From IMG/VR virus record IMGVR_UViG_3300030012_002828, positions 1 through 64,000 of that record: DNA of 64,000 nucleotides. The stretch is one strand, 5' to 3'. The translations under genes and the position numbers were made by a program. Within the stretch, counting starts at the first letter, position 1, and every line of letters begins with the position of its first letter. The notes under the pieces are model-generated. The model was not told the DNA's origin and searched no databases. It saw only the letters and a program-made list of their open reading frames with translations. The DNA is from a virus. This document shows positions 2,615 through 20,540 of this stretch, one piece after another.

Positions 2615-3928
2615 ATGTGGGAAGATATAATTAAAAATCAAATTAGCATTGGAAGACAAAGTGTTAGAACAAGAAGAAGACCTTTACCTGAAAAATCTCC
2701 CCCTAAAGAATGTTGGCCTTTTTTTGAAAAACTAATTATAGATTTTGTCGAATTAAATAAAATCTATGACCCCGAAAGTACCTCGCTTATGCCTTCTACT
2801 TTAGAAAAGATTAGAGTTGAATTCCCTAATGAAGAATATTGGTGTGAATTTAAAGAAACTATGGAAGTATACATTGATGGTGACCTACCAAAAGGAAAAA
2901 ATGAAACTAATGCTACTTATATAACAATTTACGGGTATGTAAATGGTGGTAAAGAAAAGGTCATTTTAACTTTTCAATTTAGTTTAATTTTTGCTAATAG
3001 TCTTAGAAAAACTATTTGGACTATGAGTTGTAACTTTTTTTATCAGGCTGGTTTAATTCAAATTTATGATAAGGAAATAAATGCTTACGATTGGCAATAT
3101 AAAGAATTAGAGCGAATTGCAGGTATGTCAGGTATTAGATTTTTCTGTAAAGTATTTTACAGTTGGAAATCTGCTGTAACTGAATGGTTAAAAAGAATAG
3201 GAGTTGATAGTATAAAGTATTATGGTTGGCCTGAGTTTATAATAAATGATTGCGATAAACTTGTTGGGGATATTCAAAAATCTCAAATACAAACTGGAAG
3301 ACAGGAAATTAAAACTTCAAGGTTGCCCCTACCTGAAAAAACTAAAACAAACTGTAAAGAAACCGTACTTCAAATATTTTACGAATTTGATAAAATGAAT
3401 CAATGGATTTATGGAAGAAATCATACAGAAATATCCGATTGGTTTAAATCAAGCGAATACTATAAATTAACAGAAAAAGAGTATTGTCATTTTTTAGAAA
3501 CTGTTAGAATTATATATCAGCGAGCAGGTTCTGGTTTCGACCACCAAAACGAATTATTACAATTAATTGGATATTTTTCAGTAGGTATTCCTTTTATTAT
3601 CGAATATACTATACTACAAACTTCGAGTATAATAAATGGTGTTCCTACACATTGGGTTCCTGATTTTCAAATAGTATTAAATTCTACAACAAGAGGTCTA
3701 CGACCTTTAGAAAAGTGGATAGAAAATGACGATATGGGAGAAATGATTATGTATATAAATGAAATGGATGAAGAAAGATGGGAAGAATTTAAAGGTGGAT
3801 TAAAATTAATGTACCAAGAACGAATAAATAAAATAAAATCATTATGTAATAATCCAGAAGTATATATGGAAATAGAACCCACTTCTACTTTTCCAGAAAA
3901 TTTAAATCCTCCAATTAAATTTAAATAG
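2615..3928 (+). CDS. Two-cassette PLPEK-leader protein with N-terminal MWEDIIK tag
   Basis: Starts MWEDIIKNQISIGRQSVRTRRRPLPEK; second leader DIQKSQIQTGRQEIKTSRLPLPEK at ~3269. Confidence 0.85.
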   Translation: MWEDIIKNQISIGRQSVRTRRRPLPEKSPPKECWPFFEKLIIDFVELNKIYDPESTSLMPSTLEKIRVEFPNEEYWCEFKETMEVYIDGDLPKGKNETNATYITIYGYVNGGKEKVILTFQFSLIFANSLRKTIWTMSCNFFYQAGLIQIYDKEINAYDWQYKELERIAGMSGIRFFCKVFYSWKSAVTEWLKRIGVDSIKYYGWPEFIINDCDKLVGDIQKSQIQTGRQEIKTSRLPLPEKTKTNCKETVLQIFYEFDKMNQWIYGRNHTEISDWFKSSEYYKLTEKEYCHFLETVRIIYQRAGSGFDHQNELLQLIGYFSVGIPFIIEYTILQTSSIINGVPTHWVPDFQIVLNSTTRGLRPLEKWIENDDMGEMIMYINEMDEERWEEFKGGLKLMYQERINKIKSLCNNPEVYMEIEPTSTFPENLNPPIKFK

Positions 3929-3929
3929 T
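3920..3929 (+). promoter_or_regulatory. Possible archaeal TATA box (TTTAAATAGT)
   Basis: About 35 nt upstream of ATG 3961 and similar to TTTATATAGT at 30718. The AT-rich background weakens it. Confidence 0.3.
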
Positions 3930-3960
3930 CTTTCTATTTTAATTTCTTTTAGGGAATCTT

Positions 3961-4683
3961 ATGTCTTGGGAATCTTTGATAAAAGCAAGAGGCAATTCAC
4001 CAAGAAAATTGGATTTTGTTGAAAGGTATGGACTTGATACTGAAAATTTTTATTCAATACATCAAGTTTTGGCTAATATGAAACAAAGAAAAGGCGGATT
4101 TATGGCAGGTCAATTTAATACTGTACAATTAAGAGGCGTATTAGATAAATTAGTTAGACAAGGGAGGGCTGAAGGTAGACCAATAACAATAAAAAGACCA
4201 ACATCAGGTAATGCAAAAAGACCTTCAATGGAATATAGACAAATTGTTAAAGAAATATCTAAATCTGATTGGAGGGCAACGGTAGATAATCTTGTTACTA
4301 AAGATACACCTTTTGAGATAATATATGATAATATTAGACAGTCTATGAAATTTGATTCACCAAGTAGAGGTGATGTTTTAAAATATTTAAATGAAAATTA
4401 TGACCGACATAAACTTTGGTCTAATTTATGGAGTGTAAGAAAAATACTAAAGGCAAAGGTAAAAGCAGTTAGAAATAAAAGATATTATGACTATGTAAAA
4501 TTTATTAAAAAAATTCTAAAAGATGAAGGTGGTGCCGCAGGTATGAAGAATTTTATAGATGCCGGTAACAAAATAGATGGCTTTGATGAAAAATATTTAA
4601 AATATGTTATAGGTGATGCAATAGACCATGATGATTGGTTATCTGAACATGAACATGGAGATTATTATTTAACGGAGGATTAA
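3961..4683 (+). CDS. Tagged (MSWESLIK|A) multi-module protein, probably small helix-turn-helix-like DNA-binding units
   Basis: Three segments separated by EISK|S and KILK|A; the first has a wHTH-like pattern (LRGVLDKLVRQG). Confidence 0.6.
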   Translation: MSWESLIKARGNSPRKLDFVERYGLDTENFYSIHQVLANMKQRKGGFMAGQFNTVQLRGVLDKLVRQGRAEGRPITIKRPTSGNAKRPSMEYRQIVKEISKSDWRATVDNLVTKDTPFEIIYDNIRQSMKFDSPSRGDVLKYLNENYDRHKLWSNLWSVRKILKAKVKAVRNKRYYDYVKFIKKILKDEGGAAGMKNFIDAGNKIDGFDEKYLKYVIGDAIDHDDWLSEHEHGDYYLTED

Positions 4684-4685
4684 TT

Positions 4686-5006
4686 ATGTCTTGGGAAGAT
4701 ATTTTAAAAAGAAAAAAGAGCAAAACAAAAAAGCGCAAGCCTAAGAAAAAAGAGGATATGAGAGTAGGTCGAGTTTATCCTTCTGATAGAGCAGGTAAAA
4801 AAATTATGATGCTAACGCATGAAGGTAAAAAAATTCATGCGGGTGCTAAAGGGTATGGTAATTACAAAGGTAAAGGAAAAAATAGAGGCGGAGGAACACA
4901 CACTAACAAAAAGCGTAGGGCTAATTTTAAAGCAAGGCATAATTGCGACCAATGTAAAGGTAGAATTACAACTCCTAAATGTTTAGCGTGTAAAAAATTG
5001 TGGTGA
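4686..5006 (+). CDS. Tagged (MSWEDILK) small basic protein with Cys/His-rich C-terminus
   Basis: KKIHAGAKGYGNY..RRANFKARHNC..CLACKKLW; very Lys/Arg-rich; GGAGG RBS upstream. Confidence 0.8.
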   Translation: MSWEDILKRKKSKTKKRKPKKKEDMRVGRVYPSDRAGKKIMMLTHEGKKIHAGAKGYGNYKGKGKNRGGGTHTNKKRRANFKARHNCDQCKGRITTPKCLACKKLW

Positions 5007-5011
5007 TTATT

Positions 5012-5167
5012 ATGTGGGAAGATATATTAAAAAAGAAAAAAGATGCTTGTTATCATAAAGTAAGAAGTCGTTATAAAAAGTGGCCTTCTGCTTATGCTTC
5101 AGGTGCATTAGTACAATGTAGAAAAAAGGGTGCTAAAAATTGGGGCAATTCTAAGAAGAAGAAGTGA
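5012..5167 (+). CDS. Tagged 51-aa basic protein missing from the ORF track
   Basis: Hand translation MWEDILKKKKDACYHKVRSRYKKWPSAYASGALVQCRKKGAKNWGNSKKKK*; GGTGA RBS; fills the intergenic gap. Confidence 0.85.
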   Translation: MWEDILKKKKDACYHKVRSRYKKWPSAYASGALVQCRKKGAKNWGNSKKKK

Positions 5168-5171
5168 TATA

Positions 5172-6008
5172 ATGTGGCAACTTATTCTTAAGAAAGAATC
5201 TAAATGGGTTAATAATCTTTCTGAGAGTAAGCAAAAATTACTAAATACTAAACCTTCTTTTAATGTAAAATTTCCCGAACTTTCATTTCCCGATAATGAA
5301 AGTGAATTGTCTGAAGTTATGAATATAATGGAAAAATATGAAATGAGTAAAGATGTCGAAAAGGATTTAGACCAAAATAATAATAAAATGATGTTAGATA
5401 TTGTTGGAGAAAATGCAGTAGATTGGGCAGACTTCGTTAAAGATGTAGATATTTATACCATGCAATTAAAAATGAAATACAAAAGACCAAGACCCTATGA
5501 AGTTTCAGATAAAATTAAATCTATAACAGATACTGATGATACACCATCTTTTCCAAGCGGCCACGCTATTGAAGCATATGCTTTAGCAAAAGTCCTCGCA
5601 GAAGAACACCCTGAAAAGGAAGAAGAATTATTTAATATGGCTGAAGCAATTGCTTTATCGAGGGTATTAATGGGTAATCATTTTCCAAGTGATATAGAAG
5701 CAGGTGAAAAAATAGGATTATTAATTGCTGATGCTTATTTAGATACCGATGTTAAAAAATCATGGGAAGACCAATTATCTAAAGGTTGGGTTGATTGTTC
5801 TTCATGTGGTAAAGGGAAAAAGAGAAGACCTTGTGGTAGAAAGGATGCTTCTAAAGGGCAAAAAAGAAGATGCCGACCAACTTGTTCAGCCTGTAAAGAT
5901 TACAAAAGACGAGCAGGTAAAAGAGGAAAGAAAAAGAAAAGAAGAAAAGGCACTTTTAGTTTAGAAGATAAATATGGACTTCACGGTTGGTTCAAAAGGA
6001 GGGGTTGA
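5172..6008 (+). CDS. PAP2-family (acid phosphatase/haloperoxidase superfamily) phosphatase with tag and basic Cys-rich C-terminal module
   Basis: PAP2 motifs KMKYKRPRP, PSFPSGHA and SRVLMGNHFPSD. Start moved to ATG 5172 (MWQLILKK). Internal tag VKK|SWEDQLSK|G. Confidence 0.85.
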   Translation: MWQLILKKESKWVNNLSESKQKLLNTKPSFNVKFPELSFPDNESELSEVMNIMEKYEMSKDVEKDLDQNNNKMMLDIVGENAVDWADFVKDVDIYTMQLKMKYKRPRPYEVSDKIKSITDTDDTPSFPSGHAIEAYALAKVLAEEHPEKEEELFNMAEAIALSRVLMGNHFPSDIEAGEKIGLLIADAYLDTDVKKSWEDQLSKGWVDCSSCGKGKKRRPCGRKDASKGQKRRCRPTCSACKDYKRRAGKRGKKKKRRKGTFSLEDKYGLHGWFKRRG

Positions 6009-6465
6009 TATACCAATAAGAAAGGTGAAAGGCGGCTATAAATGGGGTAAGCGTGGTAAAGTCTATAAAAATCGTAAAGATGCTGAACGGCAAGCGGCTG
6101 CTGCATATGCTTCAGGATATAAAAAATCTGAAGATGTTATTACATGGAAAGATATTCTTAAAGCAAAAAGAATCCCAAGAAAGAAAGGGCAACCTGCTAA
6201 TTCTAAAAAACATTCAGATTTATACACAGATGAAAATCCAAAAGGAACAATACATGGTTTAGGATTTAAAACTGTAAAAGATGCAAAACGCTCAGTAGCA
6301 AAAATAAAAAGAAGTAGTAGAACCCATGCACATAAAACTCAAGCGGCTATCGCTATGGAACAAAGAGCAAGAGAAATGGGTAAAAAAACTGCGGCAGGTA
6401 TTTATAGGACTTTCATTAACGCACAAAAGAGAAAGACTAAAGCAAAAAGGAAGCGTAAAAAATGA
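5974..6465 (+). CDS. Two fused basic modules separated by an internal tag (TWKDILK|A); true start uncertain, possibly ATA 6010
   Basis: Modules PIRKVKGGYKWGKRGKVY..AAYASGY and KHSDLYTDENPKGTIHGLGFK..AMEQRA. Confidence 0.75.
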   Translation: MDFTVGSKGGVDIPIRKVKGGYKWGKRGKVYKNRKDAERQAAAAYASGYKKSEDVITWKDILKAKRIPRKKGQPANSKKHSDLYTDENPKGTIHGLGFKTVKDAKRSVAKIKRSSRTHAHKTQAAIAMEQRAREMGKKTAAGIYRTFINAQKRKTKAKRKRKK

Positions 6466-6690: not shown

Positions 6691-6694
6691 TATT

Positions 6695-7579
6695 ATGCCA
6701 AAATTTTCACCTCGAAGAAATGAATTATTTCAAGTGTCAAGGTATGAATTACCAGATGGTTTAAAAAAACATATTGCTGTTGGTGTACAAAAAATAAAAA
6801 GCGATAGAGATACAAGTTATCCTAATAGTAATTGGGGTTCTGATGAACTAATGGTTATAGAAGGAAATAATCCAATGATACAACAGGGAGGCGGAGATTA
6901 TAGTATAACTTATATTTCTTTTTTTAAACTAAGAAAAGGAGGCGGAGTTTCAATTCCAGTATTAGATAAATTAAGTGTAGATAGAAGATTAACACAAGAT
7001 GCAAAAGGTCTGCTTAAATTTTTTGGATTAACTGATAGGTGGGCATTACCACCAGAAGATGATGAATCTAAATTAGCAGCAGGGCATTTTAGAGTTAATT
7101 TAGAAAGAAATGAAGTAATGGTACAATATGTTACAACATACAATTCATCGTTTATTGTTTTATATATAGGTTTTGAAAGTCCTTTAAAAATTTACGAAGG
7201 GTATAATATGTATAGTGACTTAACGGTTCGTGAATATATTGGTTTAAGATTGCTTTACAAGTCTTTTAAGAATCGCAGAAGAGAATGGAAATTATCAGAT
7301 GCTTGGCGACATTTTTTTAATGAATGGTCAAAAAGCGAAGTTACTGTTAAATTATTAGAAGGGAAGGGTTATTTACGATTTAAAAAAGAAGGTTTTCCAA
7401 GCATTACATCTAAAGGAAAAGCACATTTAGAAAATTTAATAGATAATGTAAATTTTGTTTCATTACAATTTAATGGCCGTGTTTCAGATATATTAAAAAT
7501 GGATTTAAATATAAATTGGAATGCTGAATTAGATAGTAAATTAATGGATGTATTGGAGGAATATTATGGATTGGACTGA
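6695..7579 (+). CDS. Hypothetical protein with possible C-terminal winged helix
   Basis: 294-aa ORF; LLEGKGYL..ITSKGKAHL resembles a wHTH wing. Confidence 0.6.
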   Translation: MPKFSPRRNELFQVSRYELPDGLKKHIAVGVQKIKSDRDTSYPNSNWGSDELMVIEGNNPMIQQGGGDYSITYISFFKLRKGGGVSIPVLDKLSVDRRLTQDAKGLLKFFGLTDRWALPPEDDESKLAAGHFRVNLERNEVMVQYVTTYNSSFIVLYIGFESPLKIYEGYNMYSDLTVREYIGLRLLYKSFKNRRREWKLSDAWRHFFNEWSKSEVTVKLLEGKGYLRFKKEGFPSITSKGKAHLENLIDNVNFVSLQFNGRVSDILKMDLNINWNAELDSKLMDVLEEYYGLD

Positions 7580-8342
7580 GAAATTACAAAAGAATCAAAT
7601 ACAAATTGGTCGTCAAAATGTAAAAACATCAAGATTACCATTACCTGAAAAAACACCTAAAAAAGATTGTAATGAAGAATTACTAAATATACATAAAAAA
7701 ATATCTGCTAAAATGAAAACATATGTACCTAAAATATTTGATGTATTTAACAATGCCCTTCTCCCCTCTTTAAAACATCAAGACGGTTCTATTGACAAAT
7801 TAAGACCTATTGTTTTATCCGACTCATTTCTTAAAAATAATTATTTAAAATATGAAGGTTCGGGGTATGAATACGGTGTTAAAGTAATATTAACACCAGA
7901 TAATCATATGAATAAACTTTCTGAACATTTAGGTCTTACTATGTATTGTCAGTTTATACCTTTTGAAGATGAAGAAATTGCTTGTAAAGTATTAGATTGG
8001 ATTAAAAATACAAAAGATGGCGTTATAGATTCAGATATATGGTTTGGAGATAATAGAAAATATCACGGTGCAATGGATTTGGATTATGAAAGAAGTGGAA
8101 TTGCAGATATACTTATTGGTATTGGCCCAAGAAGTAACGATGGTAGCGGTGCTTTTATTGTCTATCTAAGATTTAATGAATATGTTAATTTAGCATTTAG
8201 ACAGGTATATACTTTACTTTTAGGGGTTAAGGATGACCCCAAAAAAATTGCTGAAGATTGGTTAAATGATTTTCTTAGTGCTGTTAGTGATGCAGATATA
8301 AGGGCTATGGCAGAAGAATTAATAAATATAATTAGACAGTAA
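7566..8342 (+). CDS. Single-cassette PLPEK-leader protein
   Basis: GGAGG RBS, then MDWTEKLQKNQIQIGRQNVKTSRLPLPEKTPKKDC. Confidence 0.85.
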   Translation: MDWTEKLQKNQIQIGRQNVKTSRLPLPEKTPKKDCNEELLNIHKKISAKMKTYVPKIFDVFNNALLPSLKHQDGSIDKLRPIVLSDSFLKNNYLKYEGSGYEYGVKVILTPDNHMNKLSEHLGLTMYCQFIPFEDEEIACKVLDWIKNTKDGVIDSDIWFGDNRKYHGAMDLDYERSGIADILIGIGPRSNDGSGAFIVYLRFNEYVNLAFRQVYTLLLGVKDDPKKIAEDWLNDFLSAVSDADIRAMAEELINIIRQ

Positions 8343-8498: not shown

Positions 8499-8969
8499 AT
8501 GGTAAGGATGCCAAACTTCAAACCTGATAGAGAATTAGAAACAGAAGAATTTATTTATTCTGAACATGATATGGAAGATGTATTAGAAGGTTCAGCAGGA
8601 GATTGCTGTGAATTGGCAAAAGATTCTTGGATTAAGTCAGTAGAAGACCAAATACCAAGTATAAATAATCTTAATAGAGAATATGTTGCTTATACATTAG
8701 ACCCTTCTAATTTAGATTGTAGAAATTTTTTAGATTTACTTAAAAAATTAAATCAAATGAGACCGGGAAGTTTTGCTACGGCTTCGGTAAATAAAATTAT
8801 AGGTAGATATTTTAGAATAGACCAAATGAAAACATCGTTATTAAGTAGTGTAGCAACAATAGCCAAAAAAGCAGGTGCAGAAGCGTTAAAAACTTGGATG
8901 TATTGTGCAAGTAAAAAGAATGAAATGTCTACTAATTGGCAAGATACTCTAAGGAGAGATTTTAGATGA
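8499..8969 (+). CDS. Hypothetical Cys-containing protein with tag-like C-terminus (NWQDTLRR)
   Basis: GGTGA RBS; CCE..DC..YC pattern. Confidence 0.7.
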   Translation: MVRMPNFKPDRELETEEFIYSEHDMEDVLEGSAGDCCELAKDSWIKSVEDQIPSINNLNREYVAYTLDPSNLDCRNFLDLLKKLNQMRPGSFATASVNKIIGRYFRIDQMKTSLLSSVATIAKKAGAEALKTWMYCASKKNEMSTNWQDTLRRDFR

Positions 8970-9121
8970 AATGGGAAGAATATTTAAAAAGTATAACTAA
9001 TAAGGAAATAACAGACTGGGAAGATGCTATTAAAGCATTTACTAAAAAAGGAAAAGAATTAGGTATGCCTTTGAATATTATAGATACTTTAACAAAAGCA
9101 TTAAAGAGGGAAGAAAAATGA
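8966..9121 (+). CDS. 51-aa protein with two tag copies (not in ORF track)
   Basis: MKWEEYLK|SITNKEITDWEDAIK|AFTKK..; ATGA overlaps with both neighbours. Confidence 0.75.
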   Translation: MKWEEYLKSITNKEITDWEDAIKAFTKKGKELGMPLNIIDTLTKALKREEK

Positions 9122-9387
9122 GTTGGAAAGATATACTAAAAGGTGAAGACCGCTTCGGAATACTTAAACCGAAAGGTTTCAAAAACAAGGTAAAAACAGA
9201 AGCAAAGCGAATAGTAAGAGAAAGGCATGGATTGAAATTTGATGATTTTTTAAATGCTGAACAGAAGCGTGAAGCGGCATATTTAGCAGAATTGATGTTT
9301 AGAGGAATGTCACCCGAAGAGGCTAAATTACAATCTTATAACCCGCCTCAAATGGATGATGATGATTTACCAGTAGAAGGATTTTGA
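9118..9387 (+). CDS. Tagged (MSWKDILK|G) hypothetical protein
   Basis: ORF track plus tag. Confidence 0.8.
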   Translation: MSWKDILKGEDRFGILKPKGFKNKVKTEAKRIVRERHGLKFDDFLNAEQKREAAYLAELMFRGMSPEEAKLQSYNPPQMDDDDLPVEGF

Positions 9388-9406: not shown

Positions 9407-10726
9407 ATGTCATGGAAAGATATTCTAAAAGATGACGATGAGGATGAATACGGTAAGCGTTTTATGAAACCCGATGGTGAAGAATTCGTACAGGGATATG
9501 GTTTTATTGAAGAACCATACGGAGAAGATAGACAACCTATTACAAGAGATGAAAAAGGAAAACCATTAGAAGGCGAAGAAAGAGATAAAAGAATGGAAGA
9601 ATTTAGACAAGATAGGAAAAACCCTAAAATTTCAGAATTAGTCAATTGGTTTAAAATTAGTCTTGAAGCAACAATGGAAGATATGTTAAGTAGTATTGGG
9701 GCTGAATATACAGAAATGGATGGTAGAGGTGGAGGCTTCGCTAACATAAGAAGAAAACCAACAAAGGTAAAAACAAAAATTAGAGAATTAGGTGTAGAAA
9801 TAACTCAAGATATTATTGATAGTGTAATTGAAGGTTTTATGGATGCTATCACAAAAGACCCTAAGTTTAACGATGAAGAAACAAATCTTCTTAGAATTAC
9901 TCTTTCATCCGGTTACCAAAGGGTTTATGATTCAGGTTTAAAAATATCTGAAGAATTAATGACTGGTATTTTTGATTCAGTATATAATAATATAAGGGCA
10001 ACTAATGAAGCAGATGTTCCTGAAAAAGAATATGACAAAGAAAAACTTGACCCATTAGGAGATGTACCTAAAGAATTTACAGAAGATATGTGGGCGGCCA
10101 CATCAAATAGAATAATAAGAGATATAGAATCAATATTAAGTAATATTGATGATTATCTAACAGATGTTATTTCACAAGATAAAGCATCATTAGAATTATT
10201 TGATTTAGATTCAGATGGCACACCCGATGTTACTGCAACAGAAATTAAAAATTCTATTAAAACTAAATTACAACAATTAACTTCTTCACCTCAAATGACA
10301 AATTTAATTAAAGAATTTACAGGTGCTGTTTCTTTTGCTTTTGCTTTTAGATACCCACAAATGCAACAAAGAATGGAAATGAACCCTGATATTGCAGACC
10401 AAACAACATATGAAGAATTAGGCCAAGACCCTAATTTTGAAACAGAAATGGCTAATAGACCCGAAATACAATCAGGAGAAATGACAGATGAAGAAAGACA
10501 AAAATTTGAAGACAAGTATAAATCTAACGATACTTATACAGGAGAACTCAACTGGCAATCTATATTATCTAAAGGGCATGGTGTAGCACTAACTTCTCAA
10601 GCAGGTTTTAGTCCAGCAATACATAATTTAGCATTTGGAAATAAACCATGTTGTGATGAATGCGCTGAAGTAAAACCACCTTGTAGTAGATGTAAAGATA
10701 AAACAACTCCTTGTGGTTGTGATTAA
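9407..10726 (+). CDS. Tagged (MSWKDILK) acidic protein with a second tag and Cys-rich tail
   Basis: GGTGA RBS before ATG 9407; LNWQSILSK|G followed by CCDEC..CSRC..CGC. Confidence 0.8.
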   Translation: MSWKDILKDDDEDEYGKRFMKPDGEEFVQGYGFIEEPYGEDRQPITRDEKGKPLEGEERDKRMEEFRQDRKNPKISELVNWFKISLEATMEDMLSSIGAEYTEMDGRGGGFANIRRKPTKVKTKIRELGVEITQDIIDSVIEGFMDAITKDPKFNDEETNLLRITLSSGYQRVYDSGLKISEELMTGIFDSVYNNIRATNEADVPEKEYDKEKLDPLGDVPKEFTEDMWAATSNRIIRDIESILSNIDDYLTDVISQDKASLELFDLDSDGTPDVTATEIKNSIKTKLQQLTSSPQMTNLIKEFTGAVSFAFAFRYPQMQQRMEMNPDIADQTTYEELGQDPNFETEMANRPEIQSGEMTDEERQKFEDKYKSNDTYTGELNWQSILSKGHGVALTSQAGFSPAIHNLAFGNKPCCDECAEVKPPCSRCKDKTTPCGCD

Positions 10727-10727: not shown

Positions 10728-12032
10728 ATGAGTAAGTTTGAAGGCACAGATTTTGATAATGTAGACCAATATTTTGATATTGGTGCAATTAAAGGAGATT
10801 ATGATGCTTGGAAAACAAAATGGAATAAAGGTTCTGAGTGGGGAATTGTAGGGGGTAAAGATGGTAATAAACCTAAAACTGTTTTAGAAACAGTATTAAA
10901 TCATGGTGACCCTACCTTTGCCCGTGACCAAGCAAGAAGTATTGAAGGTTTAGGTGCTTTATTAGAAGCATTAACAGAAATACTTGATGGCGATACAATT
11001 GAAACAGAACATAAACTACAATTACAAGAAGCAATAGATGGTATGGAAGAAACTTTAACAAGAGATAAAGGTAAATGGAATCCAAGAAATATACCTTTTA
11101 ATACTGTTGTAGAATTTAACGAAACTGATGACCCTAAAGCACCTGATATAGTAAGAGATACAGTTTATGGGCATTACAGAACAAAAGCATATAATGATTA
11201 TGTAGAATGGGCTAATGAAAATAAACCCAATAAAAATTTAAAGGTTGCTAAACACGAAGATGAATGGACTAATAAATCACAAGGTAAAGCAAGACCTCCA
11301 CTTTGGCAAGCAATTACAGGCGTGGGAGAAACTAATGAAGGAAAAGGCGGTATTTTATTTATTGCAAAAAAAGCATTAAAAGGTGTAGATAAAATTAAAA
11401 TGGGTGATGGTAATAGAATTGCTATCTTTAATAATTCAAAAGGGCCAATTCAATTAGCGCAAATAAAAAGTGTTCAAGAAAAAGTTATAGAAGTTTTACA
11501 AAATCCTAATATTTATCCCGCAGGGAAATCAAGAGCACCTATGAAAGATAGATTAAATGCTGCTTTTACTAATGAAAGTTATGCTATAAGAAATGAAGAA
11601 GAAGCCCGATTACTTAATTTTGCTAAAGGGTATGATAGGGTTGAAGGTGTTGAAAAATTAAAAACTGTTAAACTAAGATTTCCAAAAAATAATCTTGCTC
11701 TAAATAAAACCATTGTACAGGTTCTAAAAGTTTTAGGACAAGAAATGAAAAATTATCAAACTCCAAAGGCTAAAGATGGAACAGCAAAACCCGGATTAGT
11801 TTTGAAAGAAAAAAGAGAAAATAAATTTAAAGGAGAAATTACAATGAGTTGGAAAAATGTATTAAAACAAAAAAAATTAAGCCCTAAGCAAAAGAAAATT
11901 GCTGAAGCGGCTGAACCTAAACATAAAATTACAGGTGCAGATTTTAAAGCATTAGCCGAAGAAGATAAAAAAACTGTTACTCGAAAAGATAATAGAAAAA
12001 AAGGAAGAGGCGCATTTACAGATAGGGATTGA
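10728..12032 (+). CDS. Hypothetical protein with an in-frame tagged C-terminal module starting at 11844
   Basis: ATG 10728; internal AGGAG RBS plus MSWKNVLKQKKLSPKQKKIAEAAEPKHKITGADFKAL. Confidence 0.75.
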   Translation: MSKFEGTDFDNVDQYFDIGAIKGDYDAWKTKWNKGSEWGIVGGKDGNKPKTVLETVLNHGDPTFARDQARSIEGLGALLEALTEILDGDTIETEHKLQLQEAIDGMEETLTRDKGKWNPRNIPFNTVVEFNETDDPKAPDIVRDTVYGHYRTKAYNDYVEWANENKPNKNLKVAKHEDEWTNKSQGKARPPLWQAITGVGETNEGKGGILFIAKKALKGVDKIKMGDGNRIAIFNNSKGPIQLAQIKSVQEKVIEVLQNPNIYPAGKSRAPMKDRLNAAFTNESYAIRNEEEARLLNFAKGYDRVEGVEKLKTVKLRFPKNNLALNKTIVQVLKVLGQEMKNYQTPKAKDGTAKPGLVLKEKRENKFKGEITMSWKNVLKQKKLSPKQKKIAEAAEPKHKITGADFKALAEEDKKTVTRKDNRKKGRGAFTDRD

Positions 12033-12037: not shown

Positions 12038-12700
12038 ATGACAAGGAAAGTAAGAAAGTCTTGTAAATTATGCCAACACGAAGACCGTGATGGTTTAGAA
12101 GAAGACATACTTGCTGGAAATATTACTTGTGATGAATTAGATAAGCAGAATAATTGGTGGGCAGGAACTTCTAAAAAACATATGCAAAATCATTTAGGGG
12201 ATTATCACGATAATTCTAACCCTTCTTGTCCTGTATGTACATATCCTAATAGAGCCGAAATAGAAATAGCAATTAGTGAAGGTACGATGAAAGTTTCTGA
12301 TGCGGCAGAAATAATATCTTGTTCAGAAGCACAAATACAATTACATATGAAAAAACATTTAAAGCCTATTGTACAACAACATGGTGCTTTAGAAGTTGCA
12401 AGAATGGATTTAAATGAAATAGATATGTTATCAGGTAATGTAACTGTACTACAAAATAAAGTAAATGAATTATTAGAAAATACTGAATTAGGTACAAAAC
12501 AAATAGATTCATTAACTAAATTAGCAAAAGAAATTAGAGAATCTCTTAAGTATATGTTAGAATTTAAAGGACAATTAGTTCATAAAAGAGAAGAAACTGT
12601 TGTTGTTCAACAAGTAGAAATTATCCAAAAAGTTCTTATAGAAAAATATCCTGAAGTATGGACTGAGATAAGAGATAGTGTAGCGGAGAGATTATCATGA
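12038..12700 (+). CDS. Putative terminase small subunit or DNA-binding protein with two CxxC..HxxxH HTH-like repeats
   Basis: SCKLCQHEDR..KKHMQNHL and SCPVCTYPNR..LHMKKHL, followed by a helical coiled region. Confidence 0.45.
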   Translation: MTRKVRKSCKLCQHEDRDGLEEDILAGNITCDELDKQNNWWAGTSKKHMQNHLGDYHDNSNPSCPVCTYPNRAEIEIAISEGTMKVSDAAEIISCSEAQIQLHMKKHLKPIVQQHGALEVARMDLNEIDMLSGNVTVLQNKVNELLENTELGTKQIDSLTKLAKEIRESLKYMLEFKGQLVHKREETVVVQQVEIIQKVLIEKYPEVWTEIRDSVAERLS

Positions 12701-13035
12701 GTTGGAAAAATATATTAAAGGCTCGAGGAAGTAATGTAAATAGATGGGGCGGAAGAGATTGGGATTACCCTATTTGGGTTAATAAAGAAGGAGAAATATA
12801 TGAATTATATAGCGCATACTATAACGATGCTGGAGATTATGCAGAAAATTATGCTGAATATAAAAGTATAGGTGCAGACAGAAGAGTTTTACAATTAACT
12901 AAAGATGAAGCATTAGAATTAGAAGCAGACTTAAAAGATGTTCCTGAAGAATCAAAAGATTCGTGGGATAAAGCACCGTTGGGTCATGTTTTGGTAGATG
13001 ACCTCATGCAATATGGTGATATTGAAGATGATTAG
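12697..13035 (+). CDS. Tagged (MSWKNILK|A) acidic hypothetical protein
   Basis: ORF track plus tag. Confidence 0.8.
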   Translation: MSWKNILKARGSNVNRWGGRDWDYPIWVNKEGEIYELYSAYYNDAGDYAENYAEYKSIGADRRVLQLTKDEALELEADLKDVPEESKDSWDKAPLGHVLVDDLMQYGDIEDD

Positions 13036-13047: not shown

Positions 13048-13569
13048 ATGAGTTGGAAAAATATATTGAAGGCTGACGAATCTTGGAGAAAGAATTTAAA
13101 GCGTGGCGGAAAAGCCAAGCCTAAACAAACAGATACTATTATGGAATTTATTAAAATGAATCCTAAAAGAACGATAGCAGATATTCAAAGACATTTACAA
13201 TATTTATACCCCGCACAAATGACAACTAAAAGACTTAGAAAATTTTTAGAAGAAAATACTAATATTGTAGTTTCTGGTAGATACCCTACAACATATAGTT
13301 ATAGAGAACCGTTATCTAAAGCAAAGAAAAAAATACCAAGAAAAGCAATTAGAGATGAAATTGACAAATATGTAAATTCTCAAGATGGTAAAGTTACAGT
13401 TAGAGAAGTTCAACAAGCCCTTATTAGAAAATTAGGAGTAATGGGTTTAACTGAAAAACCAGCATCTGTAAAAAATTATTTGTTTGGATGGCATACAGAA
13501 AAGGCTGAAGCCTTTGACCCAAATATTCATAGAAAAGATGATTTTTATTACGAGTTGGAGGATGAATAA
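13048..13569 (+). CDS. Tagged (MSWKNILK|A) protein with two putative wHTH modules
   Basis: IMEFIKMNPKRTIADIQRHL.. and IDKYVNSQDGKVTVREVQQAL.., separated by PLSK|A. Confidence 0.7.
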   Translation: MSWKNILKADESWRKNLKRGGKAKPKQTDTIMEFIKMNPKRTIADIQRHLQYLYPAQMTTKRLRKFLEENTNIVVSGRYPTTYSYREPLSKAKKKIPRKAIRDEIDKYVNSQDGKVTVREVQQALIRKLGVMGLTEKPASVKNYLFGWHTEKAEAFDPNIHRKDDFYYELEDE

Positions 13570-14174: not shown

Positions 14175-14841
14175 AATGAAAAAATGGAAAAATCAATTAA
14201 AGAAAGCCCCTTTGGATTTTAGGGATATGGAATTTGTTACTCCCAGAAATCCAGTTAGAGATAATGATATGTACTTAGACCGATTGCGTGGCGTTAAACC
14301 TCTTGAAAATAGAAGTACTCAAGGCCCTATTCAAGGAAAGAGTCCAACTCCAAAAGAAGGATTTAGTGAATTATCCGAAGAACAACAAATGGTAGGATTA
14401 AATATAGCAAGAAGATGGGCACAACAAACAATGCAAGCGTTAGTTGATTATGAAAATGAAGTGGGTCAAAGAGGCGTTAAATATCAGGGTGAAGATGATA
14501 CGGGTATGATAAAAGCATATAACAATTTAATGGGAATAGCAAGGTCAATAGAAGAAAATTATAAACGAAAACCTTGGTACTTGAAAATATTTGGTAGAGG
14601 TAGAAGGTATAGAAAAATAGTAAAACAAATAAATGATTTAGGTGAAAAAATGAATCAGGCATTTAGAAATTACAAACTTAATTTGAACATGGCACAAACT
14701 GATGCTGAAAGACAACTTAGGTACAATAAAGTAAATCAATCTTTGAAAGCATCATTACAAACACTTCAGCAAGTTAAAAACGAATTAAACAATTTTGCAC
14801 AAGAACCTATTGAAAAAGAAGATAGAAATTGGGATTATTGA
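14167..14841 (+). CDS. Tagged (MKKWKNQLKK|A) helical hypothetical protein
   Basis: ORF track; the tag begins at the in-frame ATG 14176. Confidence 0.75.
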   Translation: MNKMKKWKNQLKKAPLDFRDMEFVTPRNPVRDNDMYLDRLRGVKPLENRSTQGPIQGKSPTPKEGFSELSEEQQMVGLNIARRWAQQTMQALVDYENEVGQRGVKYQGEDDTGMIKAYNNLMGIARSIEENYKRKPWYLKIFGRGRRYRKIVKQINDLGEKMNQAFRNYKLNLNMAQTDAERQLRYNKVNQSLKASLQTLQQVKNELNNFAQEPIEKEDRNWDY

Positions 14842-15069: not shown

Positions 15070-17403
15070 ATGAATTGGAAACTAATTCTAAAAGAAGATA
15101 GTACACCTAATATAATTAGCGCAGGTGCTATCAAAACAAAATTTAGTAAAGGTAACTTACCTTCTAAAAAAGAAATAGATGAGATAGTAGAGGTACATGG
15201 ACAAGTCCAAATAAAAAATATTGATACAGCCCTTACACAATTAAAATCTGCATACAATAAAATTGCTCAAGGTGAAGATGCACCTAATAGTATTATTAAT
15301 AGAATGATAGAAGGTAGATTTAGTAAAGTAGGTAAAGATAGAGAAGATAGTCTTAGAATTGTAGGAGAAAGATTAAAAGAATTGCAGGCTCTTAAAGGAA
15401 CAGATGAAAACCCCCTAATAAATAAAACAATAGGAGGAATAACATTTGGGGAGTTAGTTTCACCCGATGATAAAACAAATCAAGAGTGGACTATTGAAAC
15501 TCTTAATGCTTTATATCAAAAAATGATAACAGAACCATCCGTTGAATTGTTGTACGCATTACATTATTTTATTAATACTTCAACCGATGGTAATTGGTCA
15601 AGAGCAGGAGGTTGGGTTAATAGAATGGGCAAAGATTCAATAGAAAATCCTGACACACAATTTTTAAAGAATGTTTTTGATTTAAGAGGTAAGCGTGATG
15701 TTAAAGGTAATATTGATAAAAAGGTTTTTGAGTTCTTTAATAAAGGTAATAAATTTAAATACACGACAGAAGGTATGAGAAATATTACTGTTAAAAGAGG
15801 TAAGGGTAAGTTTGTAACAAGAGAAGGTAAAGAGATTTCTCCAAGTAGAAAATACGAACAAGAAGGTGGCTTTAGAGAAGTAACAAGAGAAGTAGGAGAT
15901 TCACGAAATATTGTAATGGGTGAAAGAAAGTCTATGCAATATTTGATTACTGATGATTTAGTAAATAAAATCAAATCATTAACAGAACAACAATTTATAG
16001 AATTGGTTAATAATTTAAATAAAACAAATTCTTCAATAGATTTTATATCTTCATTAAAAGGTACTACTACTGAAATAGTCTATATGTTATTAAGTAGAGA
16101 TATGGGTATAAATGCTTTAGTTAGAAATATAGATGTTGCGAGAAAGGGTATGAGTCCTTCTTCACGAAGAAAGGATTATCTACATGATTGGGCTGTTAAG
16201 GAAGTTAATAAAAGAATGAAAAATGCAAATGATTCAGATGGAGAAGACTTTGAATTATTTAATATAGTATTACCTTCGCAAACTAAAGCAGAAGAAATTA
16301 TAGAAAATAAAGGGGATAGTTACGACGAATTTAGAAGAAATAAATCTAAGATGATAGATAATTTAAAAGGTAAAGTTAGAGGTGGGGATGAAACTTGGAA
16401 CAAATCTTTTGAAACATGGCTTAAATCAAGAAGAAGATTAGAAGATTCTTATCAAGGGGGCGATTCTAAAACTTTAGACCCATCGCAGAACCCTGTTAAT
16501 GTTGAAGGTGCTATGAATATAAATTATTCTTTTAAGACTTCAAACCAAATAAATGATTTTATAGAAAATTTAGGTGGCGATACTGTTTTCCGTTCACATA
16601 TACTTTCAAGAAATTTATTAGCATTATTTTTTGATTATTATATTGATTTTGGCCCAGAAGAAGGTAGAGATAAAGGTGAAAGACTTAGAACATTGGGCGA
16701 CTTTAAAGGCTATTTGCCTTCAGGTAGAATTTTTGCTGATTCAACGGAAACTACATTTTTTGACTCTATGAGAGCATTACTTACAGTAATAAAGAAAGTT
16801 TTAACAAATTCTGCATTAAGAAACTATAATCAAAATATTAACATGTCATTAGAAAAATTCTTTGAAGGTATAGATGAATTATTTAAAAAAGAGGGTGGAG
16901 AAATAGATTTACAGCCCGATGACGATGAAAATAGAAAGGAAATATTTAGCGATATAGATGCTATGGATTCTATTGATGATAATTTAAAATCATCATGGTT
17001 TGGTACAAAGGCATATATGTTAAATATAGAAGATGAATTATCCTTTGCTATGATGGATTTAAAAGAAGCAGTTGCAGAAAAAATTGCGGAAAATATTATT
17101 TTGATTGCTGAAGATACTACCGATAAATACAGACCTTCAGGAATAAAAATAGGTGGTAGGTCAAAAGGTATAAGAGATTACCTTGCGTTAAAGAAATTTA
17201 TAATACCACCTAAACCACCTAAACAAATCAAAGTTAATAAAACAACATACAAGTTAGACGAATCTATGTTTGATGAAACAGATTTAGATGCACAACTAAA
17301 ATATTATGCCTTTGAGAAAGAATATGACTTTTCTGAAGAACCATCTTTAAATATGGATAAGGTCAAGACACTAACACTAAGAGAGGCTATTGAGGGGTTT
17401 TAA
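15070..17403 (+). CDS. Large tagged (MNWKLILK) hypothetical protein, candidate internal virion protein
   Basis: 777-aa ORF with no motif I recognise beyond the tag. Confidence 0.7.
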   Translation: MNWKLILKEDSTPNIISAGAIKTKFSKGNLPSKKEIDEIVEVHGQVQIKNIDTALTQLKSAYNKIAQGEDAPNSIINRMIEGRFSKVGKDREDSLRIVGERLKELQALKGTDENPLINKTIGGITFGELVSPDDKTNQEWTIETLNALYQKMITEPSVELLYALHYFINTSTDGNWSRAGGWVNRMGKDSIENPDTQFLKNVFDLRGKRDVKGNIDKKVFEFFNKGNKFKYTTEGMRNITVKRGKGKFVTREGKEISPSRKYEQEGGFREVTREVGDSRNIVMGERKSMQYLITDDLVNKIKSLTEQQFIELVNNLNKTNSSIDFISSLKGTTTEIVYMLLSRDMGINALVRNIDVARKGMSPSSRRKDYLHDWAVKEVNKRMKNANDSDGEDFELFNIVLPSQTKAEEIIENKGDSYDEFRRNKSKMIDNLKGKVRGGDETWNKSFETWLKSRRRLEDSYQGGDSKTLDPSQNPVNVEGAMNINYSFKTSNQINDFIENLGGDTVFRSHILSRNLLALFFDYYIDFGPEEGRDKGERLRTLGDFKGYLPSGRIFADSTETTFFDSMRALLTVIKKVLTNSALRNYNQNINMSLEKFFEGIDELFKKEGGEIDLQPDDDENRKEIFSDIDAMDSIDDNLKSSWFGTKAYMLNIEDELSFAMMDLKEAVAEKIAENIILIAEDTTDKYRPSGIKIGGRSKGIRDYLALKKFIIPPKPPKQIKVNKTTYKLDESMFDETDLDAQLKYYAFEKEYDFSEEPSLNMDKVKTLTLREAIEGF

Positions 17404-17406
17404 TAA

Positions 17407-19983
17407 ATGATAGACATGAAAGATTTATCTGAAGAATTAAGAGAACAACTCTTAAATGCAGCATCAAGAGAAAGGATGTCTGATGCAAGAAAAGAGCGTT
17501 TCAAAGATTTATTAGAAAGCGAAGGGTTTGAATTAACAGATACACAGTTTGAAATAATAATGACTAATCTGAGAGATTACTTAGATGATGGTAAATATTT
17601 TTTTGGTACAAACCCTAATGTAGATAAGTTATTGGATTATTTTATGTTTGATAAAAGGACAATAGCACAAGCAGTACCCACTACAAATCGACAAAGGTTT
17701 AGAGCAGGTGTAATAGATGCAATAGATAATTCAAGAATTATAGAATTAACATACGAAGGCTTGCAAAACAAGGATGAGATTATTGAAAGATTAAGCGAAG
17801 GTTTAAACGCTGAAAAAAATCCAAGAACAGGATTAGTATTATTAACAGATAAAGAAAAACAATCTTTTAAAAAATTGTTAAAAGTATTAGAAAAAGGAGA
17901 TACTGATACCAAACTAACAAGAGCAGAAGTACCATCTTTTGAAACTTTAGATTTGTTAGAAGAATCTTTAGTGAATGTTTCAGTAATGCCAGTTGAATCA
18001 AGATTAAAAATATATAATTATTGGGAAGGTATAGAAAATAAATTTGATGAGTTTAGTGATGCGGTTAATGCGGTGGATGGTCTACAAGATGATTTATTAG
18101 CAGCCTTTAGAGAAAGGGGAGTTAATGTTATTGAACAGGCGGAAGAAAGTAATCCTTACGAAGATGCATTTGCTAATCTAACATCAAATAGTATTTTTCC
18201 TTCTTACATAGTTAAATTTAGTTCTGTTAAAATAGAAGATGAGTCTGACGAAAGAATGGCATTGAAATTATTTAAGAAATTTTTTAATATGTTAGGGAAA
18301 GAAATACCTGAAGAAATAAAAGAAAAATTAAAAGATGCTTCGAGTGATGCAGATGCAAGAGAACAAAGTGCTTCCGGTACTTTTGCTGATTATGATACGG
18401 GTGTTCCGATAGGTTATATTGATACTACTGTTAGTGATGACTTGACAGAAGAAATAGAACAAGCACAAGAAATGATTGATAGGACTATGGTTGAAAAATT
18501 TGTAGACCCATTATTTAGCATTCTAATTAATAATAATAATATTTCAGGAGAATATACTGATGAAATTATAAGTCGAGCAAAGGAGTTAATAGAAAGTAAA
18601 CTTAATTTGGGTAAATTAGGTAAATTTACAAAAGATTTAAAGAAAATTGTTGATAATCAATTAGATGAGTTTTTGGATAATTATAAAAGTTCAAGAGCAG
18701 TTAATTCAATGATAGAAAGAAATGAATTTTATTTACCTTTAATGAATAATAATGAAACCATAGAATATTTTGATTCTTTAAGTGTAGCCATTACAATTTT
18801 TTATTATGAAAATGGTGCTGGCCCAAAACAAAAAACATTTAATAAATATTCTGAGGCTTCTAAATTTGTTAATGATAATATTAAAAATTTCTTTAGTAAT
18901 GTTGGTTCGTTTATTGAATTGCAATCAGAAGTAGAAAAATTGTTAGAACGCCCCTATCAACCTAAATTTGGTGGTAAAAAGGGTAAAGGTACAGGTACAC
19001 AATATCAATTTTTAGGCGGTATCACAAGACCAACAATAACAAGATTAGCAGAAGCAAATATAGAAAGAATGAAAGAAATAGAACCTTTAATAAAATTGAT
19101 AGAAGAATATATTATTAAACCTCTAACAAGTAAAAATGTATTGTTTGATGATTTACCTGAATTCTATACATCTAAAGAATTTAAAGATTTTCCTAAGATA
19201 TTACAAAGTAGTAATGTAAGTATGGCAAGAAGGGCTATTACGGCAGGGTCTGAACCTATTGTAGAACTTGATGATTACATTAAAATAAATTCATTTTTAT
19301 ATAAACTATCTGTAAAAGAACAATTATATTACAGCGATAGTTTGAATACACAATTTGAAGATGCTGTTGATGCTTATACAAAATTTTTCTCTCATGTAGA
19401 TTCTATTGTTGATGAAGATGATAATGTTAGAATGCCGGATATTATAGATAATACAACAATTATGTTTGGTGATACTTTATACGAAATTGCTAAGGCAACT
19501 GAAAGTGATAGCGAATTGAATGAAATAGAATTTATGGGAGAACCTTTACCTTATTGGAATAAAAAACAAGAAGAAACAGGGGCTTCTGTTGAAAGCCTAA
19601 TTAGATTAGTAGATTCACCAGAATGGGAAAGATTTGTTGCCGAATCAACAATTAAAGGTATAAAAACACAAAACGAAAGATTAATTAAAAGATTAAAAAG
19701 TAGTGATTTAAAATTAACAGGGCCGATAACCCATGCTATGCTTCAAGCAACAGATATGATTAGAAAAATGAATGGGGAACAAATATACTATGCAAGATAT
19801 GATATTTCAGAAATAGACGATATAGAATATGTTGTTAATCTAATAGAAAAAGAAAATAATGTTGATTTATATGGTATAGATATTTATAATATAGTTAAAA
19901 GTCAATCTTCCTTTAATGATATAGCAAATAATTTAGGTTTATCAACCGAAATAGTGTATAAAGTTAAGGGGTTATTTAGATGA
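17407..19983 (+). CDS. Large acidic helical hypothetical protein with C-terminal HTH-like segment
   Basis: 858 aa; ends SFNDIANNLGLSTEIVYKVKGLFR. Confidence 0.7.
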   Translation: MIDMKDLSEELREQLLNAASRERMSDARKERFKDLLESEGFELTDTQFEIIMTNLRDYLDDGKYFFGTNPNVDKLLDYFMFDKRTIAQAVPTTNRQRFRAGVIDAIDNSRIIELTYEGLQNKDEIIERLSEGLNAEKNPRTGLVLLTDKEKQSFKKLLKVLEKGDTDTKLTRAEVPSFETLDLLEESLVNVSVMPVESRLKIYNYWEGIENKFDEFSDAVNAVDGLQDDLLAAFRERGVNVIEQAEESNPYEDAFANLTSNSIFPSYIVKFSSVKIEDESDERMALKLFKKFFNMLGKEIPEEIKEKLKDASSDADAREQSASGTFADYDTGVPIGYIDTTVSDDLTEEIEQAQEMIDRTMVEKFVDPLFSILINNNNISGEYTDEIISRAKELIESKLNLGKLGKFTKDLKKIVDNQLDEFLDNYKSSRAVNSMIERNEFYLPLMNNNETIEYFDSLSVAITIFYYENGAGPKQKTFNKYSEASKFVNDNIKNFFSNVGSFIELQSEVEKLLERPYQPKFGGKKGKGTGTQYQFLGGITRPTITRLAEANIERMKEIEPLIKLIEEYIIKPLTSKNVLFDDLPEFYTSKEFKDFPKILQSSNVSMARRAITAGSEPIVELDDYIKINSFLYKLSVKEQLYYSDSLNTQFEDAVDAYTKFFSHVDSIVDEDDNVRMPDIIDNTTIMFGDTLYEIAKATESDSELNEIEFMGEPLPYWNKKQEETGASVESLIRLVDSPEWERFVAESTIKGIKTQNERLIKRLKSSDLKLTGPITHAMLQATDMIRKMNGEQIYYARYDISEIDDIEYVVNLIEKENNVDLYGIDIYNIVKSQSSFNDIANNLGLSTEIVYKVKGLFR

Positions 19984-20540
19984 AAATAACATTTAAGATT
20001 GAACCCGCAACTGTTAGTGAATCAGTTTATATTTCTAAGTTCAAAGAAGATTGGAATTATGAAAGAAAGTCAAGAGGTGATATGAGTGCAATTACATTTA
20101 CTTCACCAAATAGGGTATTTTTTATTGCTACGATATTAACCCCTAAAGAATATGAAGGTAAATTAGCAGGCTATTGTGGTTATGGTATACATTCCGATGT
20201 TATTATAGAACAAGGTTCTTATGTTTTAGGTGGCCTTGCTGTAACAAAAGAAGGTAGTAATGCTATAAATTTAAGAGGAAATGGTGTTTATTCTGCTTTA
20301 AGAAATAAAAGAAATAATGTTGTAGAAAAACTCGCTAAAGAAAAGGGTGTACCATTTTTAGTTTTATTAGGATTAAAATCAACAGCACATGAATATTATA
20401 GAAATAGAGGATATGTAGAAAATTCTGAAAATATCCCAGAATGGTGTTTAAATAAAATAAAAGGAACAGGTAAAACTTGGTTTGTTTATAATGAAAATAT
20501 TGCTATGAAGAAAGCATGGGATATAATAAAAGGTAGGTGA
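19980..20540 (+). CDS. Putative GNAT-fold acetyltransferase with C-terminal tag
   Basis: GKLAGYCGY strand, motif A-like LRGNGVYSAL, motif B-like YYRNRGY; ends MKK|AWDIIK|GR. Confidence 0.6.
   Translation: MKITFKIEPATVSESVYISKFKEDWNYERKSRGDMSAITFTSPNRVFFIATILTPKEYEGKLAGYCGYGIHSDVIIEQGSYVLGGLAVTKEGSNAINLRGNGVYSALRNKRNNVVEKLAKEKGVPFLVLLGLKSTAHEYYRNRGYVENSENIPEWCLNKIKGTGKTWFVYNENIAMKKAWDIIKGR

Follow-up and report, generated by a model that had tools for sequence, protein, structure and literature searches.

Unrelated proteins of a magrovirus-like genome share a short N-terminal peptide that resembles scaffold tails and may target them to the prohead

The DNA studied here, called the window, corresponds to positions 1 to 64,000 of a viral contig of 93.8 kb (IMG/VR record IMGVR_UViG_3300030012_002828) whose genome encodes a terminase, a portal protein, a Peptidase_S78 prohead protease with a scaffold-like half, and a capsid protein of the HK97 type. 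Beside these head-assembly genes, 12 starts on the plus strand between positions 2615 and 15070 fit the pattern M-(S/K/N)-W-x-x-[ILVY]-[IL]-K, in genes that are otherwise unrelated (genes are named below by their start in the window; see Table 1). We refer to this shared N-terminal peptide as the tag. A six-frame search of the window with W..[ILVMY][ILVMQ]K returned 20 matches, 12 of which lie one or two residues past an ATG with a Shine-Dalgarno site, all of them on the plus strand between 2618 and 15076. Looser variants begin the genes at 7566 and 14176, and the tagged start at 11844 is nested in frame within a longer open reading frame (ORF). A previous, sequence-only reading of the window had listed these starts, and every one of them was found where it had been placed; its further claim that tail, membrane and replication genes do not carry the tag held true across the whole 93.8-kb genome.

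Magroviruses are among the most abundant archaeal viruses of surface oceans; both the viruses and their hosts are uncultured, and most of their genes are orphans. They are tailed viruses of Poseidoniales / Marine Group II archaea with genomes of about 90–100 kb, a capsid protein, portal and protease distantly related to those of haloarchaeal tailed viruses, and a replication module of their own with PolB and a clamp loader (PMC5434244). In our genome, PolB, RFC-like and TFB-like genes, identified by sequence inspection, are located on the strand opposite to the head genes and are kept in relatives, and the only matches of the capsid protein in the phage collection were haloarchaeal tailed viruses (23–35% identity) and one Methanofastidiosa virus. 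As judged by its size, its halovirus-like capsid and its replication module, the virus agrees with what has been published on magroviruses (PMC5434244). The two ends of the contig share an overlap of about 101 nucleotides (window 1–101 versus 93742–93843 of the whole contig, G000), as in a circular assembly or a terminally redundant genome. We also assembled four complete relatives (G001–G004; terminases 58–95% identical), which together with the contig give a set of five genomes of about 93–96 kb each.

With regard to the distribution of the tag, a DNA pattern for M-x-W-K-[DN]-I-L-K matched at least 118 IMG/VR stretches, the chance expectation being estimated at a handful. Among the matches listed there were 504 distinct tagged ORFs with a median length of 110 residues, and 95 of the 118 loci also carried other proteins common to this virus group. 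Trp is found at position 3 in 89% of the 504 tags, preceded by Ser, Thr or Asn and followed by K/E/Q/F at +1, D/N/E at +2, Ile (81%) or Val at +3, Leu (79%) or Ile at +4, and then Lys, past which conservation ends abruptly. A position-specific scoring matrix of the tag gave 82 N-terminal and 6 internal matches on the 683 predicted proteins of the five genomes, as opposed to 0–3 on shuffled proteins (about 1 expected), and chance is excluded as the reason why the tag is shared.

Crude gene calls in the five genomes yielded 11, 16, 11, 25 and 13 tagged genes per genome. The sequence-only reading had proposed a test of enrichment by gene module in the genome and its relatives; in the five genomes, 76 of the 359 genes on the head-gene strand were tagged versus none of the 324 on the replication strand. 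The same was seen in 40 further IMG/VR loci with head genes, where all 179 tagged ORFs were on the head-gene strand and none on the opposite one. Single loci contain arrays of up to 10–14 tagged genes. In the relatives, tagged genes are also present in the interval between portal and protease, and the untagged window gene 25208 has a tagged homolog in G003. A crude scan of HCTV-1, the nearest cultured relative, revealed no tag and no other enriched N-terminal motif, and published virion data from haloviruses are for this reason not transferable.

The tags of the window differ synonymously, Ser being encoded by TCT, AGT or TCA, Leu by TTA, CTA, CTT or TTG, Ile by ATA or ATT, and Lys by AAA or AAG. 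When 427 tags were compared, upstream conservation was limited to the Shine-Dalgarno site and the wobble positions were variable, and selection therefore acts on the peptide. Because upstream conservation does not extend beyond the Shine-Dalgarno site, a DNA cassette or a promoter was rejected as the main cause.

An alignment of 82 larger tagged proteins left only M1, W3 and K8 invariant, with a mean column identity of 5%, and a census of these proteins with Pfam and PHROG recognised just one PAP2 and one GNAT protein. Most of the cargo, as we call the sequence behind the tag, has no family match: a PHROG search for the identities of the window proteins returned only families of unknown function, and a search of the ESM Atlas with the 777-residue tagged protein returned no match. 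The phosphatase proposed earlier was recovered (PAP2, 5e-15), while for the proposed winged helix-turn-helix modules only a weak DEK_C match was obtained. The tag is portable on unrelated sequence, as had been suggested, being found on PAP2, GNAT and DUF5754-like proteins and on hundreds of orphans, and it is selected at the peptide level. That it is a remnant of paralogy was rejected, because the cargo includes unrelated folds.

The family of the 4686 protein consists of the tag, a basic linker of variable length and a DUF5754-like domain that starts at an invariant Met. An AlphaFold2 model of the window protein has a helix at residues 3–8, coil at 9–21 and a small beta domain (mean predicted local distance difference test score, pLDDT, 69). 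A few DUF5754-like homologs (P0280, P0288 and P0292) start at the domain Met and have no tag. In the window protein this residue is Met25 (4758–4760), and dual initiation there could give both a tagged and an untagged form.

Window proteins 3961, 5172, 5974, 10728 and 13048 are fusions of units that are separately tagged in relatives. The phosphatase part of the 5172 protein is a separate tagged gene in relatives, and sequence matching its tail is found inside other tagged genes; the internally tagged unit of 5974 is a tagged gene of its own in two loci (L004:4475 and L024:417); the nested 11844 unit is a separate tagged gene of 54 residues in a close relative; and the second half of the 13048 protein is a separate tagged gene in locus L120, the REPLSK junction keeping L-x-K and having lost Trp. 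The 4686 family likewise shows fusions at tags, MVKEDISK being an example of such a junction. At the fusion junctions Lys is kept, the hydrophobic pair is usually kept and Trp is often lost. This is most evident in the 'PLPEK leader' family, in which Trp is present in 3/3 N-terminal modules versus 0/5 internal junction modules, whereas Lys is kept in 8/8 modules and Ile at P3 in 7/8. One member is the polyprotein whose last four modules open the window. Since the contig ends overlap by about 101 nucleotides, its true start is placed outside the window at about G000:93089 (MWEDVLKNQISIPKQ), with the canonical tag MWEDVLKNQ and a full length of roughly 1,100 residues. In G003, tagged N-termini followed by N-I-Q-I-S resemble the leader, which is a resemblance only, and are found on separate genes that each have a full W tag. 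The pattern in the leader family is what we would expect if one address per chain suffices and a cut is needed at every junction; alternatively, the junction Trp may have decayed after recent fusion, and the sample is small.

Next to the cargo, the tag has counterparts among the head proteins themselves. Two proteins, and no more than two, carry [ML]-[STDEN]-W-x-[DEQ]-[IVL] at the C-terminus in every one of the five genomes, namely the fusion of protease and scaffold and a mini-scaffold of about 76 residues, a coiled protein encoded in the portal–protease interval. The N-terminal tags fit this pattern, and no other protein of the five genomes has it at the C-terminus or internally. The tail of the protease-scaffold, [LM]-[ST]-W-x-[EQ]-[VIL]-N-x-L, is conserved in 115 homologs, and the tails of the two proteins covary by clade (I-N/D-E/D-L-V versus I-H-K/R-M/L-V). 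The first six residues of the scaffold tail (M-x-W-x-[DE]-I) match the first six of the tag. The tag is a peptide-selected, portable element that is confined to the head-gene strand and its neighbourhood and has a motif in common with the scaffold tails.

With regard to HCTV-1 (KC292029.1, L146/W01), its protease-scaffold (74951–76948) contains RKSWEEEDD about 24 residues from the end, which recalls M-S-W-E-E-I. Because HCTV-1 has this related KSWEEE near the end of its scaffold but no tags, the scaffold tail probably predates the tag.

The protease matches Peptidase_S78 (PF04586) with 41.8 bits versus a cut-off of 21, and also Peptidase_S78_2 (PF14550) and the PHROG family 'head maturation protease' (7.7e-17); its gene is located directly upstream of the capsid protein gene. 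By profile score and position it is a prohead protease of the Peptidase_S78 (HK97) family. The HK97 capsid protein is cut at K103/S104 (PMC10275583), in agreement with the previous statement that the HK97 protease cuts after Lys. In the capsid protein of our virus, K26 is invariant in 35 homologs, being part of N-x-L-[LI]-K and followed by a variable stretch rich in Gly and Ala, and D-N-x-L-[LM]-K-S-G is found in the mini-scaffold of every one of the five genomes. An AlphaFold2 model of the capsid protein had a mean pLDDT of 44, which is too low to place K26.

We propose that the tag, M-[STN]-W-x-[DNE]-[IV]-[LI]-K, may be a portable prohead-targeting signal in two parts, a docking helix resembling the scaffold tails and a Lys cleavage site, and from the sequence evidence we give this reading a probability of about one half. 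The first half, M-x-W-x-[DE]-I, would be a short amphipathic helix copying the tails of the protease-scaffold and the mini-scaffold, and because the tag copies those tails, the cargo would dock where the scaffold tails do, in the interior of the assembling capsid. [IV]-L-K, as the second half, is similar to N-x-L-L-K of the capsid protein and the mini-scaffold and would probably be cut after Lys by the S78 protease. Such a cut would release the cargo and split the modules of fused cargo and of polyproteins, and the clipped cargo may then be retained in the mature head and delivered into the host. A broader proposal is that of a packaging code used throughout the lineage, in which a mimic of the scaffold tail and a Lys-specific site load 10–25 exchangeable cargo proteins, polyproteins included, for delivery to the host; this we put forward tentatively, as the less probable of the two.

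It should be underlined that a number of observations weigh against prohead targeting. Between 11 and 25 cargo proteins per genome, some of them 400–800 residues long, is much for one capsid. The tagged block opens the rightward gene set, a position in which early accessory genes are often found in phages, and could itself be an accessory block of the early type with another common partner. With regard to docking, the tag (L-K) diverges from the scaffold tails (N/H-x-L-V) past Ile and does not follow the clade-specific changes seen in these tails. The tail match was moreover noticed after the fact, and the information in the pattern is modest, about 0.2 chance C-terminal matches being estimated over the 683 proteins. 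With regard to cleavage, the residue past the tag Lys is unrestricted (K/E/N/A/R/S/Q) and not confined to A/S/G. This counts against a cut, since Ser follows the HK97 cleavage site and small residues follow the candidate sites of the capsid protein and the mini-scaffold. The protease has an N-terminal E-L-V-I-L-K-G in 104 of its 115 homologs, and this was set aside as a self-cleavage site: the Pfam match starts there at profile position 13, and the segment is probably the first beta strand of the S78 fold. Tagged proteins were no more basic than untagged ones in a charge test, so that a DNA-condensing role for the set as a whole is unsupported. Finally, Ser-2 is encoded by AGT in 89% of the tags versus 24% of the Ser codons genome-wide (231 Ser-2 tags from loci L003–L120, e.g. 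window 9121–9123, 12700–12702 and 13051–13053), and A is found at +4 in 88% of the tags versus 50% of untagged genes; the AGT bias indicates that the nucleotides at +4 are under a constraint of their own, in addition to the peptide signal.

This last bias, together with A/U-rich codons, would be in line with an early host-takeover or accessory block in which the shared N-terminus serves expression or stability, as an initiation region or a helix cap, and not sorting; the tagged genes are small, fast-evolving and mostly orphans, and they occupy the upstream end of the rightward gene set. We find this improbable, as synonymous changes leave Trp (TGG), Ile/Leu and Lys intact, the Leu codon alternating between TTR and CTN, as the genes on the replication strand and the tail genes manage without a tag, and as in-frame copies at junctions, which have no role in initiation, still keep I/L-K; nor does it account for the scaffold-tail match. 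The frequent fusion and fission exactly at tags, the arrays of tagged genes in single loci and the approximately 22 identical bases across the ATG at starts 11844 and 13048 could also point to a recombination handle, that is, a DNA cassette of ribosome-binding site and tag by which modules are shuffled through homologous recombination, the function of the peptide being secondary. Among the explanations considered this is the least probable, because 24 degenerate bases are a poor substrate for homologous recombination and the amino acid pattern is far better conserved than the DNA, of which the comparison of 427 tags left only the Shine-Dalgarno site conserved upstream and the wobble positions variable.

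A more serious contender, although still an unlikely one, is a short linear motif for a partner other than the capsid. This could be conjugation of a viral ubiquitin-like protein (Ubl), with Lys as acceptor or the tag as a docking site for E2/E3, or binding to a central host factor, for example a chaperone or the proteasome, by which accessory proteins would be given a shared fate, timed degradation or activation. Genes for Ubl, E1, E2-like and JAB proteins (G000:76726–86626, minus strand) are kept in all five tag-bearing genomes, from which it follows that the system is a feature of the lineage and not an oddity of the contig. Lys is the sole residue kept at every junction, and the cargo has no structural-protein signatures. 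The D/E found two residues past Lys in 35% of the tags is loosely similar to a hydrophobic-K-x-E acceptor, yet it is far from conserved; a Lys acceptor needs no fixed spacing from Met1, whereas W3 is present in 89% of the tags; and the Ubl genes belong to the replication module on the other strand. Nor would such a partner explain why the tag matches two scaffold tails, why hydrophobic-L-K is conserved in capsid protein and mini-scaffold alike, and why tagged genes are strictly linked to the head-gene strand and placed inside head modules. Scaffold-tail match and restriction to strand and module are in combination unexplained by any of these three alternatives, but all evidence that ties the tag to head assembly would also apply if the tagged proteins were additional scaffold or core, recruited by the tag and then degraded and expelled before DNA packaging, so that nothing is delivered to the host. 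In T4, digestion removes the core proteins gp22, gp67 and gp68 (PMC9958956), and many tagged proteins are small, helical or of low complexity. Enzymes (PAP2, GNAT) and DNA-binding-like or basic modules would, however, make little sense in a disposable scaffold, and the very fast turnover of cargo between close relatives is a better fit to proteins that interact with the host; we judge this possibility to be about as improbable as a role in expression.

The closest known counterpart of targeted cargo is the capsid-targeting sequence (CTS) of T4 (Mullaney & Black 1996), an N-terminal peptide of about 10 residues on diverse, fast-evolving internal proteins, which directs these proteins into the scaffolding core and is removed by gp21 before the cargo is injected with the DNA (reviewed in PMC3012670, PMC9958956). 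Our sequence evidence likewise points to a short N-terminal peptide shared by unrelated cargo, with a prohead protease encoded nearby. Unlike the T4 CTS, which is present on few proteins, the tag is carried by 11–25 genes per genome and by about 500 distinct ORFs among those listed; it occurs in viruses of a presumably archaeal host, resembles the C-terminal tail of a scaffold and also marks junctions in fusions and polyproteins. T4 gp21 belongs to another family of prohead proteases than Peptidase_S78, to which the protease here belongs, and no family of the gp21 type was among the profile matches of our protease. Since the protease family is not that of T4 and the residue at which we infer cleavage is Lys, the tag system is an analog of the T4 system and not a member of it. 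With HK97 it has in common a protease of the PF04586 family and a conserved Lys site near the N-terminus of the capsid protein, HK97 having Lys at P1. In contrast to HK97, which has a delta scaffold domain of 102 residues on its capsid protein and no tagged cargo, the scaffold is here joined to the protease, and the predicted cleavage would take no more than about 26 residues off the capsid protein.

The scaffold of P22 and the protease-scaffold pair of herpesviruses have C-terminal tails that bind coat or capsid protein, the herpesvirus pair sharing one tail. In the same manner, our protease-scaffold and small scaffold share a conserved C-terminal helix, the usual capsid-binding element, but the copy of the tail is here found at the N-terminus of cargo, and no set of unrelated proteins is known to copy the scaffold tail in P22 or herpesviruses. 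The cargo-loading peptides of encapsulins are short, are found on unrelated cargo and bind the inner face of a shell with the HK97 fold. The tag is similar in being a short peptide on unrelated cargo in a system with an HK97-fold shell, to which the tag would bind under our proposal, and differs in that encapsulin peptides are mostly C-terminal and uncleaved, that their shells are not viruses and that the motifs are unrelated. In the giant phages SPN3US and phiKZ, the prohead protease processes many of the proteins inside the head at a shared cleavage motif, and these are later ejected into the host (PMC5694885, PMC10052503); these phages use long propeptides with a cleavage motif and a protease similar to T4 gp21, and have no shared tag of 8 residues. 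A literature search on the tag strings returned nothing relevant. In the magrovirus literature searched (including PMC5434244), 'N-terminal' was absent and the uses of 'motif', 'leader' and 'signal' were unrelated to a shared tag, and no metaproteome bearing on magroviruses was found in the literature. Relative to known capsid-targeting tags, what is new is the occurrence in archaeal viruses, the HK97-type protease, the far larger repertoire of cargo and the use at polyprotein junctions.

If the lineage-wide packaging code is correct, it would represent the first case of capsid targeting in an archaeal virus, its natural cargo repertoire would be larger than that known for any other single tag, and the tag would be an index of host-manipulating proteins for an uncultured virus-host pair. 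As a packaging address it would mark the orphan proteins that are carried in the virion and are the first to act in the host, and thereby offer a catalogue of hundreds of candidate takeover and anti-defence proteins from sequence only. It would also imply an independent origin of capsid-targeting tags in archaeal viruses, in combination with an HK97-type protease, and provide a minimal peptide with which foreign proteins could be loaded into capsids of the HK97 fold. Should packaging be the wrong reading, a motif of 8 residues kept at the N-terminus of about 500 unrelated proteins would still call for an explanation, as an undescribed signal in sorting or regulation.

Table 1. Tagged genes, fusion junctions, head-module counterparts of the tag and proteins with aromatic tails (window positions unless G000 is given)
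Feature	Position	Strand	Tag, junction or site
Leader-family polyprotein, last four modules	1–2613	+	Junctions keep D/P-I-x-K, without Trp: GDIFK 64–78; SPIKK 769–783; GDISK 1393–1407; DDIKK 2050–2064
Two-module leader-family protein	2615–3928	+	Tag MWEDIIK; junction GDIQK 3266–3280, without Trp
Fusion of two units, separate tagged genes in relatives	3961–4683	+	Tag MSWESLIK; junction WSVRKILK 4429–4452
Basic linker and DUF5754-like domain starting at invariant Met25	4686–5006	+	Tag MSWEDILK
51-residue basic peptide	5012–5167	+	Tag MWEDILK
PAP2-family phosphatase with Cys-rich basic tail	5172–6008	+	Tag MWQLILK; junction SWEDQLSK 5760–5783
Untagged basic N-terminal part and internally tagged unit	5974–6465	+	Internal tag TWKDILK 6142–6162
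Leader-family protein	7566–8342	+	Loose tag MDWTEKLQK
51-residue protein, conserved in relatives	8966–9121	+	Tag MKWEEYLK; second tag-like motif DWEDAIK 9014–9034
89-residue protein	9118–9387	+	Tag MSWKDILK
439-residue acidic protein	9407–10726	+	Tag MSWKDILK; internal NWQSILSK 10550–10573, then Cys-rich tail
434-residue untagged protein with nested tagged unit	10728–12032	+	Nested MSWKNVLK 11844–11867, own Shine-Dalgarno site
112-residue acidic protein	12697–13035	+	Tag MSWKNILK
173-residue protein, weak DEK_C-like match	13048–13569	+	Tag MSWKNILK; junction REPLSK 13303–13320
221-residue protein	14176–14841	+	Loose tag MKKWKNQLKK
777-residue protein, first in tight gene run	15070–17403	+	Tag MNWKLILK
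76-residue mini-scaffold, head module	27436–27666	+	D-N-V-L-L-K-S-G site 27514–27531; C-terminal tail MDWSEIDELV 27613–27642
Peptidase_S78 prohead protease, acidic linker and coiled scaffold-like half	30750–32033	+	Tail MSWEEINDLV 31986–32015
Major capsid protein (HK97-like, SU10_MCP)	32069–33370	+	Conserved N-terminal 26 residues ending G-N-S-L-I-K (32129–32146)
Protein with aromatic C-terminal tail	58111–58716	−	
Protein with aromatic C-terminal tail	62425–63303	−	
Protein with aromatic C-terminal tail	63808–66207	−	
Protein with aromatic C-terminal tail	G000:70023–71270		
Protein with aromatic C-terminal tail	G000:73145–73972		

The genes at 15070, 17407, 19980 and 20537 are stacked without gaps, the terminase gene being the last. 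The ORF just upstream of the terminase (19980–20540) ends with ...KKAWDIIKGR and thus has a tag-like W-x-I-I-K at its C-terminus (20514–20531); it is GNAT-like by eye only, a Pfam search giving no match. The head module also contains, at 28195–30708, a gene for an ATP-dependent DNA ligase (PF01068, 4.6e-27) that has a long extension at its N-terminus; it is located between the genes of the mini-scaffold and the protease, apart from the replication genes. Several proteins of the replication module have aromatic C-terminal tails similar to a PIP box, that of PolB being ...QTTLDSWW and others ...GELQVNW, ...SQNDDWF, ...DDDLNYW and ...NTKLGDW, which suggests a common sliding-clamp docking motif at the C-termini of the replication proteins.

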